A stretch of 64,000 bases of DNA from assembly GCA_965215515.1 (NCBI GenBank), contig OZ244057.1, forward strand, positions 384,001-448,000. Reading direction: 5' to 3'. Position numbers: made by a program. The stretch comes from Oligoflexales bacterium. Lineage in GTDB: Bacteria; Bdellovibrionota_B; Oligoflexia; Oligoflexales; JAPPIL01. Shown in pieces: positions 27,001 through 33,000 of the stretch (within the stretch, counting starts at the first letter, position 1; every line of letters starts with the position of its first letter).

Positions 27001-30000
27001 ATCTGAAGGGCGAAGATGCGCTGCAAGTCAGCGAGCAGTGCTTGCAGTGAGTGTTGGGTCAATTTGGCTGGTTGCTGGAAATTGAGTAGTACCGTGTCGC
27101 GGTGACTGTTGTCGAGCACTTGTGTAATGACGATAAGTTTTTTCAGATACAGCGCTAGGGTGAGCACATCGCGCTGCAACGCACCGAGCTGTCCTTGTAG
27201 TTGGCGGTAGTTGGCGGCTGGCAGGGTGCCGTCTTGCAGGCGTGCGCCGAGATGACTGAGGTGCAAGGCGATCAGGGTTTGGGCGGCGGCGATAGTGGTG
27301 GTGACGAAATAGACCCGTCGTTGTTGCTGAGTGTGGGTGAGTTCGCGTTGGATGTTTTGCCACATCGGTGTGGTGTCGGAGTTTGTCAGCGGTTGTGTCT
27401 GTAGCAGTGCCGCGGCGATGACGGGGCGTAGTGGCGACGACAGCAGGCGTATCAGCACGGTATCGTCCAGTTCGTCAGCGATGTCTGGGGTGATATTTTT
27501 GCTGTGTACTTCTTCGCCTGCGATGTGCCAGATTCCGTGAGGAAAACGCTGCTGACTCCGCAAGGCCAGCTTGAGGCGACTGTCCAGGGTAAGCGCATCG
27601 CCGCCGAAGGTCATGCTGTGGCGGAGGTTACGGTAGAGGGTGTGGGTGAAGTTGAGGGTACCGAAGTAGGCGACTTGAAACAGCGGGCAGATGGTATGCA
27701 GCGGTCCGATGAGCATCGGCTCGATAACTCCTTCGGTGATGGCGGTGTAGGGTAGCCAGGTCAAGCCGACGAACACGGCGCTGAGGATACCGCGTTCGTG
27801 GTAGAGGCGGTGGAGAAACCCTCGTGCCCGTTGGCTGGTGTCACGCCACCAGGTGACTTGGGTCAGTTTTTTTGCGCTCTGTAGATGGGTGTGTAGTTCC
27901 TCCGTCCAGGCGTGTTGGGTACGTAGGTGATCTCGTGTTCTAGCGGTGTCGCCGTACAGGAAGCAGGCACGACAGACTTGGTAGAGGTTTGTGCCTTGCA
28001 GACGTGGTGGCACGAGGTGGGCGAGCCAGGCGTACACAGGGAGGTCGAGTACCTGTCGTTTGGTTTGTAGCTGTAGCCAGTTGGTGGCCGCGAACCAGTT
28101 GTGTTCTTGTCGGTAGGCGGCATGAATCTGTTGTAGGTCTGAGCTGAGCTGGTCGGCACTCTTTGCCAGTGCAGGTAACAACAGCAGTAGCAAGCAGGGG
28201 GGCAGTTGCATCAGTTTTCGCAAGATTGAACCTCATGCTCATGGCGCGGGGGTCCTCGGCTTTGGATAGAGCCGAGGGCGAGGAGTGAGGAAAACAGAAC
28301 TCATCTCGTATGTCAAGTTTAATCATTGCGGTGCGAGGCGCACTGTAGATGCCCCCGTAGAGAGCGGACACCCTATCGTCTTCTAACAATTCACGTACAG
28401 GAGTGAGGAAGCAGGGGTATAGTTCACTATTCTTTTTTCAGTTCACCCCAGGTGGTGGTTTGTTTGCCTTGTGCTTTAGGGAGGGCGGCGATGCGGGCAG
28501 CGAGGCGTACCATTCTGAACTGGCGGGCAAAATCGAGGGCGGTGTACCCGTCTTTGCTCTTCAGGAAGGGGTTGATGTCCTGATGCTCGATGAGTTTAAT
28601 CACTAAGTCATCGAAGCGGTTTAGTATCGCGTGGTGCAGGGCGGTCAGACCGTCTTTATCCTGGGCGTTGATGTCGATGTCAGGATCGTACTTAAGCACC
28701 TCGAGTGCCAAGTGCTTATGTCCCTGCTTGAGTTCAAAGATCAGCGGATACTTGGGGCGACAACCCATGGGATCCTCCTCTAGTTCGTATTCAGGGAAGA
28801 AACAGTTCTCTAGCGGTAATCCTTCGTGCACATGTTTGTAGAGCCAGACGATGCCGTTGATGTCGTCTTGGCCGAGATCGCCAATCTTATTCACAAAATG
28901 TGAGTGTGAACTCATTATGGAAGCGGGCTGTGTGCCCTTAGTGCTAGGTAAACCGCCTGTGCTAGGGCCTGGCTTGCCCTTGTAGGTGTCGGAGAGACCG
29001 AAAGCATGCCCAACTTCGTGGATAAGGTTGTTCATAAAGATTGCTGTCCTCATGCCGCGACGCATGTTGATGACAGGGCGATTGTCCCTCAGTTGGGCAT
29101 TGGAGGTATCAAAATTACAGTGGAAAATGACCCGCAGATCTTCGTCGTGGGGGCGGGGAACGGCGACGCGCTGAGAGCGGAAATCTTCAACGATCGGCTT
29201 GTCAGTGTAGTCGCGCAATGGCTGCAACCAGGCACGTAAGGCTTTGCCGATGGCGGCGGTAAGTGCCTCGTCGTTATCCCTTTCCTCGGGCGGACAATTG
29301 TCACCGTAGGTATAAGCGATGTCCAGGTGCGGCGCGTGCACCTTATTGATGAGCTGACCATCAAGATTAAAACCTTCCCGCCACCAGCGATGTTGCTGCG
29401 CGATAAACTTCGTATCCGTGCTCTGCGGACGCACTATGCAGGACAATAACAACAGAGCGAACGACAAAAAAAGTGAGTGTCTCATGAGCGTATCCTCCTA
29501 AGGACAGACTTCGTTACCCTGCAAGGTTTTAGCACTAGCAGCATCGCAACCGCCGACAGCACATCGATCGAGTGCTTCGAAGAGATAGGGAGTTGATTTG
29601 TCGAGAAGGCTTGGAACTGGATGACCAGGATCGTTGCCTAGTAGTTGTCTATCTATAAATTCTCTACATTCTCTGCTCATGCTACTCTTGCTTGTTGTAC
29701 CCGCATAGAAATAATCCCACCACAGTTTTTGAGAAAGAGCACCCTGGTACTGATTGCCGAAAATAATATTACTTAGTGCATCATTATTATTATAATCTTT
29801 ACAGGCTTCAGGTATCCTACCCCCTCCCCCGCCAGTAGTGAGAATGTTTTGTACCTCACCAAGCTTGAGACGACTATAGCTAGTGCAAGCGTCCATGGCT
29901 TTAATGGGGTCGTAGCAGTCGCACGTTTTGTTGCCAGGAGGCCAGGAGACAGATGCATAGCCCTCGGGGCAGGAGGGAACACATGGCTCATCTTCTTCTG

Positions 30001-33000
30001 GTGGTTTAGGCACGTTGCAGGTACAGTCAAACGCTAGGTACTTCCCTGAAATCGATGTTCGACTAAGATCATGCGTGCAGTTTTTTTGTGCCTCTTCGAC
30101 AGTCGGCGGGGATAAAGTGCTAGCATAGTCCTGACCAAGGGCATCACTGTAACGATACGTTTCACATTTGTTTTCGCAGGTACATGCAGCGCCCGTCGAT
30201 GAGAAGTAACCCCCTCTAGTACTTTCACAGTGACTCGTTACCTCCGCAACTTCAGTATTTTTGGCGGGAACATCGCCCCCACTATAATCAGCTGGGTAGC
30301 TAACGCTATTACAGACAGGATCAGGCGGTGTCTCTGTCGGTGTCTCTGTCGGTGTCTCTGTCGGTGTCTCTGTCGGTGTCGGTGTCTCTGGCGGAGGTGG
30401 AGGAGAGACGCTGTATTTGCAACTCCCCGTACACTTATCAGTGTCGAAACTCCAGCTCTTATCAGCCCCGCTGCAGGTGCAGCCGCCACTGTTCCACGTG
30501 CCGCTAGCTTTGGTGCAAGCAGTCTGTTCAGCATCGGAAAGACACACGCACTCGCCTGTAGAACCAACCCCGAACACAGACAGCGCCTTGTTGAGCAGGC
30601 TGAATGAAGTACGAGCAGAGAAGTTCCATACCTTCTTGGGATCAGAGCAAGTGCACTTGCACCTATTATCGTTCCAGGTTGCCTCACTCACGTTGCCGCA
30701 TGCGTTTTTCTCATTACCAGTACTATCAGGGCACTGACACGTACAAGTATTCGGATTGTATACTCTGTTCACGTATGTCGTCCCATCGCTGCTGTTGCAA
30801 TTGCAGCCACTACCATATGTAGCCTCTTCCTGACAGCTGCCGTCCCTTGTCCCATCCAAACAGGCACTCTCACACTCTCCCACTTGCACCGCCTGCCCTC
30901 CCGAGCATTCTTCTTCAGTTTCAGTAATGGGTTCTGTTGGCTGTTCTGTCTCTGACTTCTTCGCACACACGCACCTACCCACCGTCCAGGGAGTAGGAGC
31001 CGTCCAGATGACGGTGTAGTCTGAAGTTGGATTTGTACAAGGTTTAGTTTGAAGCACGCCCCCATCGCTGCAGCAGTAGTGGGTATTGTGGTTGTCCTCC
31101 TTGCATCCTTCGGGCTCCTCAGTTTCAATGGCGGAGCAGTCACACGCATCTTGGTCCAAGTCCGTGTTCCAGCTGATTGTGTATGCATCATCACAGTTAT
31201 CACCGCTGGGAATGACACCACCAGTACCTTCCTCACTGCAGCAGTAGTGGGTATTGTGGTTGTCCTCCTTGCATCCTTCGGGCTCCTCAGTTTCAATGGC
31301 GGAGCAGTCACACGCATCTGGGTCCAAGTCCGTGTTCCAGCTGATTGTGTATGCATCATCACAGTTATCACCGCTGGGAATGACACCACCAGTACCTTCC
31401 TCACTGCAGCAGTAGTTGCTCATGTTGCGCTGTCGGCATGCTTTGTTTTCAACCTTAGAAGGGCAGGGGGGACTGGTACACTCGCACTGGCAGGCAGTGG
31501 AGTTCCAGTTCGGTGTGGCAGAGGGGCAGGTGATGCCAGCCGCCGCAGCTTCTGCAGCAGTAGCATGTGGACACTCGCACTGGCAGGCAGTGGAGTTCCA
31601 GTTCGGTGTGGCAGAGGGGCAGGTGATGCCAGCTTCTGCAGCAGTAGCATATAGACACTGGCACTGGCAGGTTGTGGAATTCCATGTGTAGTTGCCAGTA
31701 CAAGACTGTGGAGCACATCCACATTGGCAGTGACTGGGAATCCAGGTGTAACCTGGAGCACAATCATCTGCGCTTTTTTTACATATACAACAATCAGGCT
31801 GACTTATATCTGTTTCCCACCCGCCAACTTTGGCGCAGGTGGTGCATGGGGGAGGTGGCGTTGGCGTTGGCGTTGGCGTTGGCGTTGGTGTTGGTGTCGG
31901 ATCAGGCGTTGGCGTTGGTGGCGTTGGCGTTGGTGGCGTTGGCGTTGGTGGCGTTGGCGTTGGTGGCGTTGGTGTTATGCAAACCTTCGTCCCTATAACT
32001 GTTACCCGCCTATTTCGTGCCTCTCTTGGACAGGGAGGCCATCCACTACAGGTTCTCGTCTGTGGTTCATATTCATATCTCGATTCGCCCTCACAAGCGT
32101 TGGGATCTGTCCTACTATCACTCACCGCAGGCTGCCAAGGAGTACATCCGCATCTCCTACAGCAGCCCTTATTAGGGGCACTATCATTGAACGTCCCCCA
32201 CCACCCGTTGCAGGTTAAGCTAAATGTATTAGCCACCTCGGTATTACCATCACAGCACTGTGTTGTCGGATCACATGGTGGCGGAGGCGGTGGTGTTGGT
32301 GTTGGCGGCGGCGGCGGAGGTGGTGCCCCTAAGCCTGCGGGGCAGTACTTGGTGATGTTGCGGCAGACCGTGGGCTTGGCATCGCGCAACGCCATCCTCA
32401 CCGCATCACCCCGCGTATAGTCACACTCCTCGCTCCCCCCGCCATGACAATCGGGATAAATATACCTGCCCTCAGCATCGGCATAGGCAAAGGCAACCGC
32501 AACATTACCAGGACGCAACTGATAAAAATAACGTAACTGTCCACAGGCTTGCGGACGGAAACCCAAACGGTTATTCAACCCCAGATCGCGATCATCGGCG
32601 TAGTCCCCACAATCACCCCTAGTACCGTCCTCATTCTTGTAGCCGATACCACCATCAGGGGCGAGCAACGCGGAGCCACTATAGTAATTACCGTGCTCGA
32701 CTTTATACATATCTTGTAAGGTGGCCAGGTGGGCGAGATTGCTCTTCGCCTCCCCCCGCCGTGCCTGCGCCAAGAAAGCATGATAACGCGGCACTGCCAA
32801 GGCGACCAAAATGCCGATAATCGCCACCGCGACCATCAACTCCACCAAACTTAAACCCGCCTTCGTCCGCACCACTTCCCTTTTTTTGGCTAAAAACAAA
32901 ACTTTCCCGCGCGAACACCATCGGCGTTTTTTTTTTCACTTTAGTTACGTTGCCAAAACCCCCAAATTACAGTTGTCTGCCTGCAATATTGCGGGAGAGA

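Follow-up and report, generated by a model that had tools for sequence, protein, structure and literature searches.

The window analysed here is a 64,000-nucleotide stretch of contig OZ244057.1 (positions 384,001–448,000), and other copies of the locus are named by their contig positions (for example, copy 1874368). Its minus strand carries a two-gene unit composed of a giant modular type IV pilin gene (29498..32899), which encodes 1133 residues from a TTG codon at 32899 or 1124 residues from a likelier GTG codon at 32872, and a partner gene (28427..29485), whose 352-residue product is a lipoprotein combining a metzincin domain with ankyrin repeats and a conserved C-terminal tail. The 2.18-Mb single-contig genome of this uncultured bacterium holds 13 such pilin–partner pairs, and the genes that flank the window copy, beyond the partner on the downstream side and beyond the Rpn-like genes on the upstream side, occur only once, indicating that the unit is not a chance arrangement. 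A near-identical 5' cassette is shared by 12 of the 13 pairs; the 13th pair is divergent, and there is in addition a collapsed relic that retains the 5' anchor, 47 nt of the pilin head and the last 156 nt of the partner. A tblastn search of the genome with the first 200 residues of the pilin recovered all twelve cassette starts given in a preliminary description (86.5–99.5% identity) and added the divergent 13th locus (contig position 1343688, plus strand; 59%), five ordinary short pilins at 38–42% and two fragments. In agreement with the 5' similarity and patchwork 3' matches described there, blastn with the window locus matched its 5' part to 11 other loci (91.4–98.7% over 727–1292 bp) and gave patchwork matches further 3'. 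Read from TTG, 10 of the 12 copies give 590–1205 residues and two stop after 59 and 153 residues, again as described; read from GTG, 12 of the 13 pilin ORFs are intact, with 581–1196 residues. The copy at 1600949 is indeed broken, by two +1 insertions (G6 to G7 and C10 to C11). The core reading is thus supported: type IV pilins of great length and high cysteine content form a multi-copy family, and every member has a lipoprotein partner with metzincin and ankyrin parts.

The conserved non-coding part of the cassette, about 105 nt long (32900..33004, minus strand), was delimited in an alignment of 13 upstream regions; it is common to all 12 close copies and contains the palindrome GCAATATTGC. 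A poly-A tract within it (32927..32936, minus strand) is A10 in the window copy. An A7 run followed by GGGAA (32881..32887, minus strand) would be coding if translation started at TTG. The true start is more likely to be the GTG nine codons after TTG, giving the leader MRTKAG/LSLVELM (slash, cleavage site) and placing the A7 run in the ribosome-binding region, immediately ahead of the start codon. In the divergent 13th copy, a TAG stop is aligned with the TTG of the others and the only possible start is the aligned GTG (MRTRVAG/LSLVEL). A same-genus relative has AAGGAG, five nucleotides and GTG at the corresponding place, leaders in about 30 of 39 relatives are 6–9 residues long from the called starts, as read by eye from printed N-termini, and protein-collection calls for this genome begin at MRTKAG or MRTRAG. 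Therefore, the TTG start put forward in the preliminary description is probably wrong, and for most copies the starts had not been truncated by the gene caller, contrary to the earlier view. Copy 240165 does have A8 instead of A7, but it is not out of frame as was claimed, since from GTG it is an intact ORF of 1049 residues and is present in the protein collection (P0003, 1049 aa).

The pilin module (32333..32872, minus strand) comprises the leader MRTKAG, the cleavage site before LSLVELM with Glu at +5, the long helix alpha-1 and a head with six cysteines. The window pilin scores 23.4 bits against Pfam N_methyl (cut-off 21.2) and 21.5 bits against TIGR02532 (cut-off 16.3), and N_methyl is also above cut-off in all 11 other copies tested, confirming the earlier assignment. 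All 22 matches of a PDB profile search are pilins or pseudopilins, the best being Myxococcus PilA (E 1.2e-19), with the alignment starting from mature residue 1. The head is followed by a poly-proline linker, LGAPPPPPPPTPTPPPPPPC (32258..32332, minus strand), at which the cassette ends on its 3' side in roughly half of the copies, and then by modules separated by Pro/Thr linkers. The genome encodes one prepilin peptidase, PilB/PilT-type ATPases, PilC/GspF platforms and three secretins. We consider that there is somewhat more to be said for than against the interpretation that these pilins are variable adhesins presented on pili, made diverse by recombination and expressed together with a protease at the cell surface. 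With its short basic leader and hydrophobic helix, the pilin would be processed by the genome's only prepilin peptidase and assembled by the type IV pilus machinery, and the rigid poly-proline linker would hold out 400–1000 residues of small disulfide-rich modules, which may be displayed outside the cell as adhesins, most likely at the pilus tip. In the available text of a published study, modular pilins present adhesive modules on pili and are assembled into them (PMC8179133). Counting against this interpretation, AlphaFold2 models the head with low confidence (pLDDT 51.6), and the top-listed pilin structures in a Foldseek search with this model have E values of at least 0.02. A rather unlikely alternative is that the pilin head is only an export and anchoring device, staying in the inner membrane or in a short type II secretion-like pseudopilus, so that the cysteine-rich parts are periplasmic, at the surface, or cut by the partner and released, and no long pilus is made. 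A type II secretion-like cluster of ATPase, platform protein and secretin is present at 1707905–1712107, the pilin has sequence matches to pseudopilins, GspG included, modules of such length are bulky for a filament subunit, and the partner would be a protease adjoining Pro/Thr linkers. However, the best matches of the pilin are type IVa major pilins rather than pseudopilins, the head resembles the five short pilins of the same genome, and the published modular pilins mentioned above also speak for assembly.

The stretch 29501..32257 (minus strand) is a mosaic of cysteine-rich modules bearing W-x(3-7)-CxC and CxCxC motifs. The window pilin has 96 cysteines in 1133 residues, and the cysteine share of whole pilins is 6.1–9.0% compared with 1.72% in ORFs of at least 300 codons, bearing out the enrichment noted before. 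Within this region are a long Pro/Thr linker, (TP)n (31832..31984), which is another frequent end-point of homology blocks; a tandem duplication of a module of about 56 residues (..YCCSEEGTGGVIPSGDNCDDAYTISWNTDLD.DACDC.., 31082..31417), seen as a 184-bp self-match of 98.9%; a third linker, SPPPPPETPTPTETPTETPTETPTETPPDPVC (30311..30412); and a C-terminal domain (29501..29974) also present in copies 1874368 and 1604820, all on the minus strand. Apart from a weak match of this C-terminal domain to a same-genus pilin (32% over 131 residues, E 2e-9), no relatives of the cysteine-rich modules were found outside this genome. The outer modules gave no family match and no assignable fold, so that adhesion is argued from architecture, and this too counts against the adhesin interpretation. 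In homologous blocks, 766 of 864 cysteine columns (89%) are conserved compared with 5110 of 7574 other columns (67%), and the median dN/dS is 0.60, with values above 1 in only 4 of the 32 blocks. The outer modules are constrained coding sequence, under looser constraint than the head. That the family is decaying repeat DNA or an assembly artefact with non-functional long ORFs is largely refuted by the intact ORFs, by dN/dS below 1 in 28 of 32 blocks with cysteines preferentially conserved, and by relatives in other genomes that keep the architecture and pairing, and we regard it as extremely improbable. Contigs of three other runs, possibly including the source sample, match pieces of the locus at 0 mismatches and span the pilin–partner junction, although the two frameshifts in one copy, the relic and further fragments, and the apparent origin of the genome as a metagenome assembly, related records being MAGs, would be in line with such decay or artefact.

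At the junction (29486..29500, minus strand), the pilin stop codon TAG overlaps a strong ribosome-binding site (TAGGAGGA, AGGAGG), which is followed by 7 nt and the partner ATG, and no terminator-like site was found between the two genes on the minus strand. Each locus would therefore form, in the adhesin interpretation, a two-gene operon in which the partner gene is translationally coupled to the pilin gene. An HExGHxxGLxD ORF lies on the same strand after the pilin in 13 of 13 loci, as the preliminary description held for its loci; the genome contains 20 such ORFs, and the 7 that are unpaired count against the adhesin interpretation. The partner begins with a signal peptide with a lipobox (LLSC; 29438..29485, minus strand), assigned by motif only, and its zinc-binding motif HEVGHAFGLSD(TY) (residues 156–166; 28988..29020, minus strand) has Asp at the third ligand position. 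The conservation claimed for the lipobox cysteine and the HExGH..GL.D motif is upheld by an 18-sequence alignment, in which C16, H156, E157, G159, H160, G163, L164, D166, G184, Q186, P187, S189 and M191 are among the invariant residues. Ankyrin repeats, likewise confirmed, cover residues 253–322 (28520..28729, minus strand; Pfam Ank_5 32.8, Ank_2 32.5 and Ank_4 29.2 bits, all above cut-offs), and Ank_2 is above cut-off in all 13 paired partners. The AlphaFold2 model of the catalytic domain (pLDDT 78.6, pTM 0.82) has MMP-2, -7, -1 and -13 as its top Foldseek matches (E from 1.6e-5, target TM 0.47–0.57), in agreement with a matrixin-like fold. In sequence, however, the label fits less well: snapalysin (1C7K, E 0.0011) is the best solved-structure match, ahead of the MMPs, Asp and not His is the third zinc ligand, which is also the case in snapalysin, and Pfam Peptidase_M10 is below cut-off in all 13 paired partners (best 19.0 bits, cut-off 24). 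The partner is thus predicted to be a lipid-anchored zinc protease of the metzincin fold with a His-His-Asp site and two to four ankyrin repeats. Produced alongside the adhesin, it may act on a common target outside the cell, which could be host proteins (of the matrix or the surface) or the adhesin's own Pro/Thr linkers.

The pairing is kept by all six long pilins of same-genus genomes (4 of 4 and 2 of 2 in two genomes), and 39 long pilins from other records, 374–1562 residues in length, have heads 41–72% identical and tails with 8.0–11.6% cysteine. Long cysteine-rich pilins are a trait of the lineage. The other holders of the partner family are five Candidatus Poribacteria records, in which its genes form tandem arrays of up to 5–6 with ordinary signal peptides and have no pilin alongside. 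This counts against the adhesin interpretation, since the partner family evidently needs no pilin to work, and the pairing may reflect co-regulation only. Poribacteria are sponge symbionts. The ankyrin repeats and the occurrence of the partner family in Poribacteria point to a eukaryotic host, probably a sponge, and the units look like a changeable, putative toolkit for host attachment. Recognition of bacterial prey instead of an animal host, with the repertoire widening the prey range, seems distinctly improbable: predators dependent on type IV pili occur in the lineage, the most closely related record is Oligoflexales, and Bdellovibrio, according to the available text of one study, recognises prey by chimeric fibres that form a family of paralogues and whose tips vary (PMC10769870), so that its mosaic adhesive trimer fibres would parallel the pilin repertoire if prey were the target, but the ankyrin repeats of the 13 partners, a 1710-residue ORF with a long ankyrin-repeat run elsewhere in the genome, the Poribacteria records and the small genome size are against it.

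Concerted evolution is seen in the head cassette. In 55 pairwise comparisons among 11 loci, the median dS is 0.093 for the pilin head and about 1.0 for the partner, for which 25 of the 55 pairs are saturated; between the window copy and copy 1919415, the head dS is 0.000 whereas the partner dS is saturated. The 105 non-coding nucleotides upstream are likewise conserved. A second conserved anchor of about 100 nt lies at the 3' end of the partner (28407..28504, minus strand), where nucleotide-level conservation between loci covers the tail ..KGKQTTTWGELKKE, the stop codon and a further 20 nt or so; the last 90 nt of the partner have a mean pairwise identity of 84–85% compared with 54–71% just before. 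The mosaic structure reported earlier is also evident, as the best-matching paralogue switches five times along the window gene, and, of the 252 internal homology end-points, 146 are no more than 8 residues away from a Pro/Thr linker, where random placement gives 25.9 +/- 4.7, although block ends at linkers may be partly due to differing linker lengths besides recombination. In the adhesin interpretation, the 13 loci would be a repertoire. Gene conversion would homogenise two stretches across the loci, one of about 800 nt made up of the head and its upstream region and one of roughly 100 nt at the 3' end of the partner; these would act as homology anchors, and the modules between them would be swapped, with the repetitive Pro/Thr linker DNA providing the break points.

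The poly-A tract occupies the same place in all 13 loci and varies from A8 to A11; no other site of the cassette, which is otherwise about 95% identical, varies as much in length. This raises the possibility, which we think doubtful, that the family is first of all a contingency system, in which one or a few loci are on at once through the length of the upstream poly-A tract or of homopolymers in the gene, and recombination renews the displayed part and so evades host recognition. Both frameshifts of copy 1600949 in G6/G7 and C10/C11 runs, the mosaic genes and the raised dN/dS of the outer parts are consistent with it. However, differences in tract length within a population could not be traced to a particular locus, no promoter was recognised upstream of the pilin gene against which to place the tract (which counts against the adhesin interpretation as well), all loci retain start and upstream region, unlike silent cassettes, and homopolymers other than this tract show no clear enrichment, with only three G/C tracts of at least 8 in the loci. 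Such a system is compatible with pilus-presented adhesins and not opposed to them. Farther upstream, two inverted repeats able to form hairpins, CAACTTTTT/AAAAAGTTG and GGGGC/GCCCC (33005..33065, minus strand; read by eye and shared by some other copies), may be the terminator of the upstream gene. Outside the unit, just upstream of the cassette, there is an Rpn/YhgA-like gene on the minus strand (33207..35276), present as a full copy (34152–35276) and a truncated duplicate (33207–33809).

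The giant pilin gene (window 29498–32899, minus strand; 1133 codons when counted from a TTG) and the gene of its metzincin-ankyrin lipoprotein partner (28427–29485, minus strand; 352 codons, 12 nt after the pilin ORF) lie in a genome consisting of one contig of 2,180,710 bp with a G+C content of 52.6%. The 5′ part of this locus matches 11 further places with 91.4–98.7% identity over 727–1292 bp, and patchwork matches are seen 3′ of that. A protein-level search with the first 200 pilin residues recovers all 12 starts listed in the preliminary description at 86.5–99.5% identity, and it also finds a 13th, divergent pilin locus (59%), five ordinary short pilins (38–42%) and two fragments. 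As had been proposed, the partner comes after the pilin on the same strand: an ORF with the motif HExGHxxGLxD occupies this place in 13 of 13 loci. The genome has 20 such ORFs, 13 paired with a pilin and 7 unpaired. Since the window genes beyond the partner are single-copy, the repeated unit consists of the upstream 105–170 nt, the pilin and the partner. Two ORFs downstream of the partner (26919–28223 and 26178–26909) were considered as members of the unit and rejected, being single-copy and having no family match.

The ATG of the partner lies 7 bases after a strong ribosome-binding site, TAGGAGGA, which overlaps the stop codon of the pilin, and there is no terminator-like site between the two genes on the same strand. 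The arrangement of these signals makes the two genes look like one operon with coupled translation. A consensus scan, whose counts overall are at shuffle level, detects no sigma-70-like site in front of the pilin gene on the strand that encodes it, and inspection by eye around TGGCAACG finds no sigma-54 site. Seven public sequencing runs match the locus, all of them DNA.

The pilin begins with a prepilin signal, MRTKAG followed by LSLVELMVAVAIIGIL, in which a short basic leader precedes a hydrophobic stretch with Glu at +5; residue +1 is Leu, the usual residue being Phe. The window pilin scores 23.4 bits with Pfam N_methyl (cut-off 21.2) and 21.5 bits with TIGR02532 (cut-off 16.3), and N_methyl is above its cut-off in 11 of the 11 other copies. 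When the head profile is compared with the PDB, all 22 matches are pilins or pseudopilins, the best being the Myxococcus major pilin PilA (8TJ2, E 1.2e-19), whose alignment covers profile positions 8–70 and begins at mature residue 1. An AF2 model of the head has a helix at residues 9–60 (52 residues) and four strands with a pLDDT of only 51.6 (13-row alignment), and the top three Foldseek matches of this low-confidence model are PAK pilin, FimA and PilA4, with E values of only 0.02–0.26. The protein is predicted to carry a type IV pilin class III signal peptide and an alpha-1 helix homologous to those of solved pilins. Assembly components found over their cut-offs in the genome are one Peptidase_A24 match (prepilin peptidase), eight T2SSE ATPases with PilB- and PilT-type enzymes among them, four T2SSF stretches in two genes (two platform proteins) and three Secretin matches. 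The head might be a mere export or anchoring device. In the reading preferred here, that of a modular pilin, the uniform head would fit a single assembly machinery and would also supply the homology for exchange.

The start codon had been placed at the TTG (leader MFLAKKREVVRTKAG), but four observations favour the second GTG, nine codons on, which gives the leader MRTKAG. First, at the very place where the other copies have the TTG, a TAG stop is found in the divergent 13th copy, and the aligned GTG is its sole in-frame start. Second, a same-genus pilin has AAGGAG, five bases and GTG in the homologous place. Third, about 30 of 39 related long pilins, with N-termini read by eye, have leaders of 6–9 residues from their called starts, such as MRSRIAG and MHSKYA, each before FSLVELM. 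Fourth, the protein-collection entries for this genome start with MRTKAG or MRTRAG. With the GTG as the start, the A7/A8 run sits in the ribosome-binding region, and copy 240165, previously regarded as frameshifted by A8 where the others have A7, becomes an intact ORF of 1049 residues with a protein of the same length in the collection. Twelve of the 13 pilin ORFs are intact when read from this start (581–1196 aa). One copy, 1600949, is broken as reported, with apparent +1 insertions in its G6>G7 and C10>C11 runs; it also has an in-frame 18-nt deletion. Decay or artefact as an explanation for the family as a whole is hard to reconcile with its intact ORFs, with the signs of selection and with the existence of relatives. 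At the predicted prepilin cleavage site, many related long pilins (P0131, P0134, P0140 and others) have Ala in place of Gly at −1, as in MHSKYA and MDKKSA before FSLVELM. Ala at this position is unusual for class III signal peptides.

The pilin consists of a 180-residue head, a poly-Pro linker and 400–1000 further residues. Small cysteine-rich modules with W-x(3-7)-CxC and CxCxC motifs lie behind the poly-Pro linker, followed in the window pilin by two more Pro/Thr linkers and a C-terminal domain of about 160 residues. Pfam finds nothing over cut-off in five cut-out outer pieces (CXCXC E 0.074, DUF4100 E 0.0055) and reports only N_methyl and ComP_DUS in the 13 whole pilins. NCBIfam has no match to the outer parts of the window pilin, and ESM Atlas gives no usable match for its last 199 residues. 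Word-indexed and full HMMER library-wide searches with residues 350–1133 return only paralogues from the same genome and one Pro/Thr low-complexity match. In comparisons of paralogues, conservation reaches 89% of aligned positions in Cys columns and 67% in other columns, and the median dN/dS of the outer parts is 0.60, as expected of disulfide-rich modules outside the cell if selection on them is loose or in part diversifying. A long pilin of a relative (L003:1492-3375:+, in the same-genus genome G001) contains ..CGDWGSWSDWSEC..RTRTKSC.., a stretch that by eye resembles a thrombospondin type 1 repeat; Pfam at E ≤ 0.05 does not report this repeat in that pilin.

Composed of a pilin module and a predicted additional module, the protein corresponds to a modular pilin as defined by Raynaud et al. 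2021 (PMC8179133). In that report, more than 1,200 modular pilins in 264 architectures are counted, modular pilins present adhesive modules on type IV pili, and Streptococcus sanguinis provides two examples, PilB carrying a vWA module and PilC a lectin module. The pilins described here share with them the N-terminal pilin module, the linker and the extra part, which in those proteins binds ligands and is presented by the pilus. Unlike in the pilins described there, the extra part here comprises 400–1000 residues of unrecognised, putatively disulfide-rich modules (the longest protein named there has 860 residues in all), and there are 13 paralogous loci with a concerted head and shuffled modules, each gene being coupled to a predicted protease gene.

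Comparison of dS in 55 pairs of 11 loci gives a median of 0.093 for the head. For the partner gene, which lies some kilobases further downstream, the median is close to 1, and saturation is seen in 25 of the pairs. Between the window copy and copy 1919415, the dS of the head is 0.000 and that of the partner is saturated. The 105 nt of non-coding upstream DNA is likewise uniform between loci. With head dS low or zero next to partners whose dS is near 1 or saturated, the uniformity of the head is put down to gene conversion, and thus to concerted evolution, and not to whole loci having been duplicated recently. The best-matching paralogue switches five times along the window copy. In the family as a whole, 146 of 252 internal block ends are no more than 8 residues away from a Pro/Thr linker, against a random expectation of 25.9 ± 4.7, a count to which differences in linker length may contribute, since they can themselves end an alignment. 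A second anchor is formed by the last 90–100 nt of the partner and about 20 nt past its stop, which are conserved in nucleotides with a mean identity of 84–85% versus 54–71% just before it. A relic locus at contig 964,630–965,073 contains the upstream cassette with roughly the first 43 codons of the pilin, continues with a 47-nt head piece and then has the last 156 nt of the partner. More fragments are found at 2171197–2172578 (the 5′ end of the cassette) and at 236270 (a 108-codon ORF ending in the partner tail). The anatomy and evolution of the loci can be stated with high confidence.

In the pilE/pilS system of Neisseria, the N-terminal part of the pilin is conserved and the variable C-terminal part is renewed by gene conversion between many copies, one expression locus receiving sequence from promoterless, 5′-truncated silent copies. 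Antigenic variation of this type was rejected for the present family, because none of the 13 loci has lost its upstream region, its start codon or any part of the head. Unlike in Neisseria, the variable part here is many times larger and modular.

A poly-A tract of 8–11 bases lies about 30 nt 5′ of the TTG in each locus, and its length differs between paralogues. One-base indels at 32926/32927 in this tract are seen in three of four public runs compared as contigs; since 12 paralogues share the stretch and differ there, these indels are not readable as population variation. A switchable surface-variation system is another explanation for the loci, compatible with that of a repertoire of modular pilins. 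In a further reading, which we consider unlikely, the 13 loci would be a built-in cassette-exchange system with two anchors, a poly-A on/off setting and an adhesin-matched protease, acting as a surface-variation machine in an animal symbiont. The head and the upstream region would be the 5′ anchor and the partner tail the 3′ anchor, and the variable unit between them would comprise the adhesin modules with the protease and ankyrin part. Exchange between expression-ready loci would involve whole adhesin–protease units as well as single modules, the repetitive DNA of the Pro/Thr linkers would act like exon borders, and the poly-A tracts would determine which loci are on. The protease would be matched to its own adhesin, so that cutting of the linker, for example, could free the pilus from the host. 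If true, this would be combinatorial surface variation of a kind not described for type IV pili.

Cys16 of the lipobox, H156, E157, H160, G163, D166 and Met191 are invariant in 18 aligned partner paralogues, and the zinc-motif residues and Met191 stay invariant in 26 sequences including homologues from Poribacteria. The lipobox of the window partner reads LLSC, as judged from the motif. The partner contains the extended zinc motif HExxHxxGxx(H/D) with D166 at the place of the third ligand, and Met191 lies in GTQPxSxM, a segment that aligns with the Met-turn region of MMP-14, -7 and -12. A PDB profile search with the whole partner was dominated by ankyrin matches and was rerun with the catalytic domain alone. 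The best sequence match is then snapalysin (HETGHVLGLPDHY), with an E value of only 0.0011 over about 45 residues, and MMP-14, -7 and -12 come next, the matched segment running from the Met-turn as far as DDxxGIxWLY. The AF2 model of the catalytic domain (pLDDT 78.6, pTM 0.82) has 127 PDB matches at E ≤ 0.001, the top ones being MMP catalytic domains with E values from 1.6e-5 and target TM scores of 0.47–0.57. Assignment of the paired partners as matrixins (M10, PF00413) was rejected, Peptidase_M10 reaching at best 19.0 bits against a cut-off of 24. The label "matrixin-like" used in the preliminary description is borne out for the MMP-like fold of the AF2 model but not at the family level, since the third ligand is Asp in 13 of 13 paired partners and the scores are below the Pfam cut-off. 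The partner is best described as a predicted metzincin in which Asp is the third ligand and the fold resembles that of MMPs, and is no matrixin by the Pfam criterion. One unpaired paralogue (contig 889874) has the third His and scores 35.0 bits with Peptidase_M10. Another (contig 956700–961832; L029:1701-6833:+; 1710 aa) has the HEIGHAFGLADTH motif and a very long ankyrin run (Pfam Ank, 18 stretches).

The HExxHxxGxxD(x)Y motif of the partner aligns with that of snapalysin (MEROPS M7, PDB 1C7K/4HX3), HEXXHXXGXXD being the motif for which PMC3890501 uses the name Asp-zincin. Unlike snapalysin, with about 130 residues, the partner has a catalytic domain nearly twice as long (about 235 residues), and its lipobox, its ankyrin repeats and its conserved tail at the C-terminus set it apart from both snapalysin and the MMPs (M10). 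Ank_2 is above 27.3 bits in 13 of 13 paired partners, and 11 of the 13 end in ..HPKAMPVAAKGKQTTTWGELKKE(E). In the remaining two (contig 1486522–1488213, L021:3023-4714:-; contig 1564826–1566463, L022:3027-4664:-), the TTWGELKKE tail is replaced by a dockerin together with a type A sorting domain of the type IX secretion system. These sorting domains are the only two TIGR04183 matches in the genome, so that a general set of type IX cargo seems to be absent from it. The usual TTWGELKKE tail may itself be a sorting signal. A complex prediction between the mature partner and the C-terminal 199 residues of the pilin gives a score of 0.00, which is below the mark and speaks neither for nor against binding.

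At E ≤ 1e-10 the partner family comprises 461 clusters. Their names go no further than "ankyrin repeat domain-containing protein" or "hypothetical", and their precomputed domains are ankyrin alone save PF09413 in three. For the secreted ankyrin-repeat proteins of sponge symbionts, a role in interfering with phagocytosis has been proposed. The partner resembles these in having ankyrin repeats behind a signal peptide, and differs in the metzincin domain to which the repeats are joined and in the coupling to a pilin gene seen in this genus. A literature search combining Poribacteria, ankyrin and matrix metalloproteinase found no report.

In the genome collection, the closest loci of the partner are one record titled Oligoflexales and five from Candidatus Poribacteria. 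A 651-codon ORF with 7.1% Cys precedes the partner in the Oligoflexales record. The homologues in Poribacteria form tandem arrays of five genes (locus L012) and six genes (L014) without pilins and are 37–53% identical to the window partner. They have an ordinary signal peptide ending in AQG or ARG and no lipobox, and 14 of 15 have a TTWGxLK tail. This distribution suggests that the partner family may have been exchanged between distant phyla. Poribacteria are sponge symbionts, and the shared gene families point to an organism that may be sponge-associated.

In two same-genus genomes, all long pilins that were found (4 of 4 in one, 2 of 2 in the other) have a partner directly behind them, and most of their 18–19 partner paralogues are unpaired. 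Other records contain 39 long pilins of 374–1562 aa, with heads 41–72% identical and tails with 8.0–11.6% Cys; seven of them are on one 2.85-Mb contig. The long pilins of the relatives together with the pairing in the genus therefore indicate that giant pilins and their pairing are a lineage trait, expanded here to 13 loci. The partner family itself appears to be older and wider than the pairing and able to work alone.

The functional reading of the family as a repertoire of modular pilins with a coupled surface protease has, in our judgement, about an even chance of being correct. The outer modules would bind varied ligands, and the coupled lipoprotein protease would act at the same site, either on host matrix or on the adhesin's own linkers. 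The pilins might instead recognise prey, as the MAT fibres of Bdellovibrio do, which PMC10769870 describes as paralogous surface adhesins with chimeric variable tips, read as a multi-ligand repertoire. Both are paralogous families with chimeric variable parts from related lineages, surface-exposed in the one case and predicted to be so in the other, a likeness by description; no sequence relation between them was found, nor was one tested for. Unlike the pilins here, the MAT proteins are trimeric and phage-fibre-like and are not known to have a paired metzincin.

Few bacterial surface machines are as widespread as type IV pili. By what route these pili acquire further binding abilities is an open question, to which modular pilins are at present the answer given. 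In a repertoire of modular pilins such as that proposed here, this idea would be taken much further, the machinery-fitting part being kept uniform by gene conversion while the outer parts shuffle. About 2.7% of the 2.18-Mb genome is spent on 13 expression-ready giant pilin loci, as estimated from about 4.5 kb per locus. What sets the family apart is its copy number, together with a 5′ cassette that evolves in concert, shuffling bounded by linkers, cysteine-rich modules that are orphans, and a partner from an unannotated metzincin-ankyrin family to which the coupling is fixed; no prior description of such a pilin–protease family was found in the literature searched. If displayed as proposed, the pilins would be a natural library of disulfide-rich binding modules. 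They would also offer a model, open to testing, for the attachment of an uncultured symbiont to host matrix and for its remodelling of that matrix. The partner family by itself deserves a family definition.

An Rpn/YhgA-like gene at window 33207–35276 (minus strand) matches Transposase_31 (E 5e-4) and, below its cut-off, TIGR01784 (33 bits). A 12-nt tandem repeat near its 3′ end encodes nine copies of GIEQ, and the full gene is closely followed on its downstream side by a truncated duplicate in which the repeats are fewer. The genome contains about 17 copies or fragments of this gene (tblastn). Membership in the pilin unit was rejected, since only two lie directly upstream of pilin cassettes (416899, the window copy, and 1919415), with two weaker ones nearby. 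A 320-aa ORF at window 25241–26203 (minus strand) reads by eye as a response-regulator receiver domain followed by GGDEF (..RYGGDEFVILL..).
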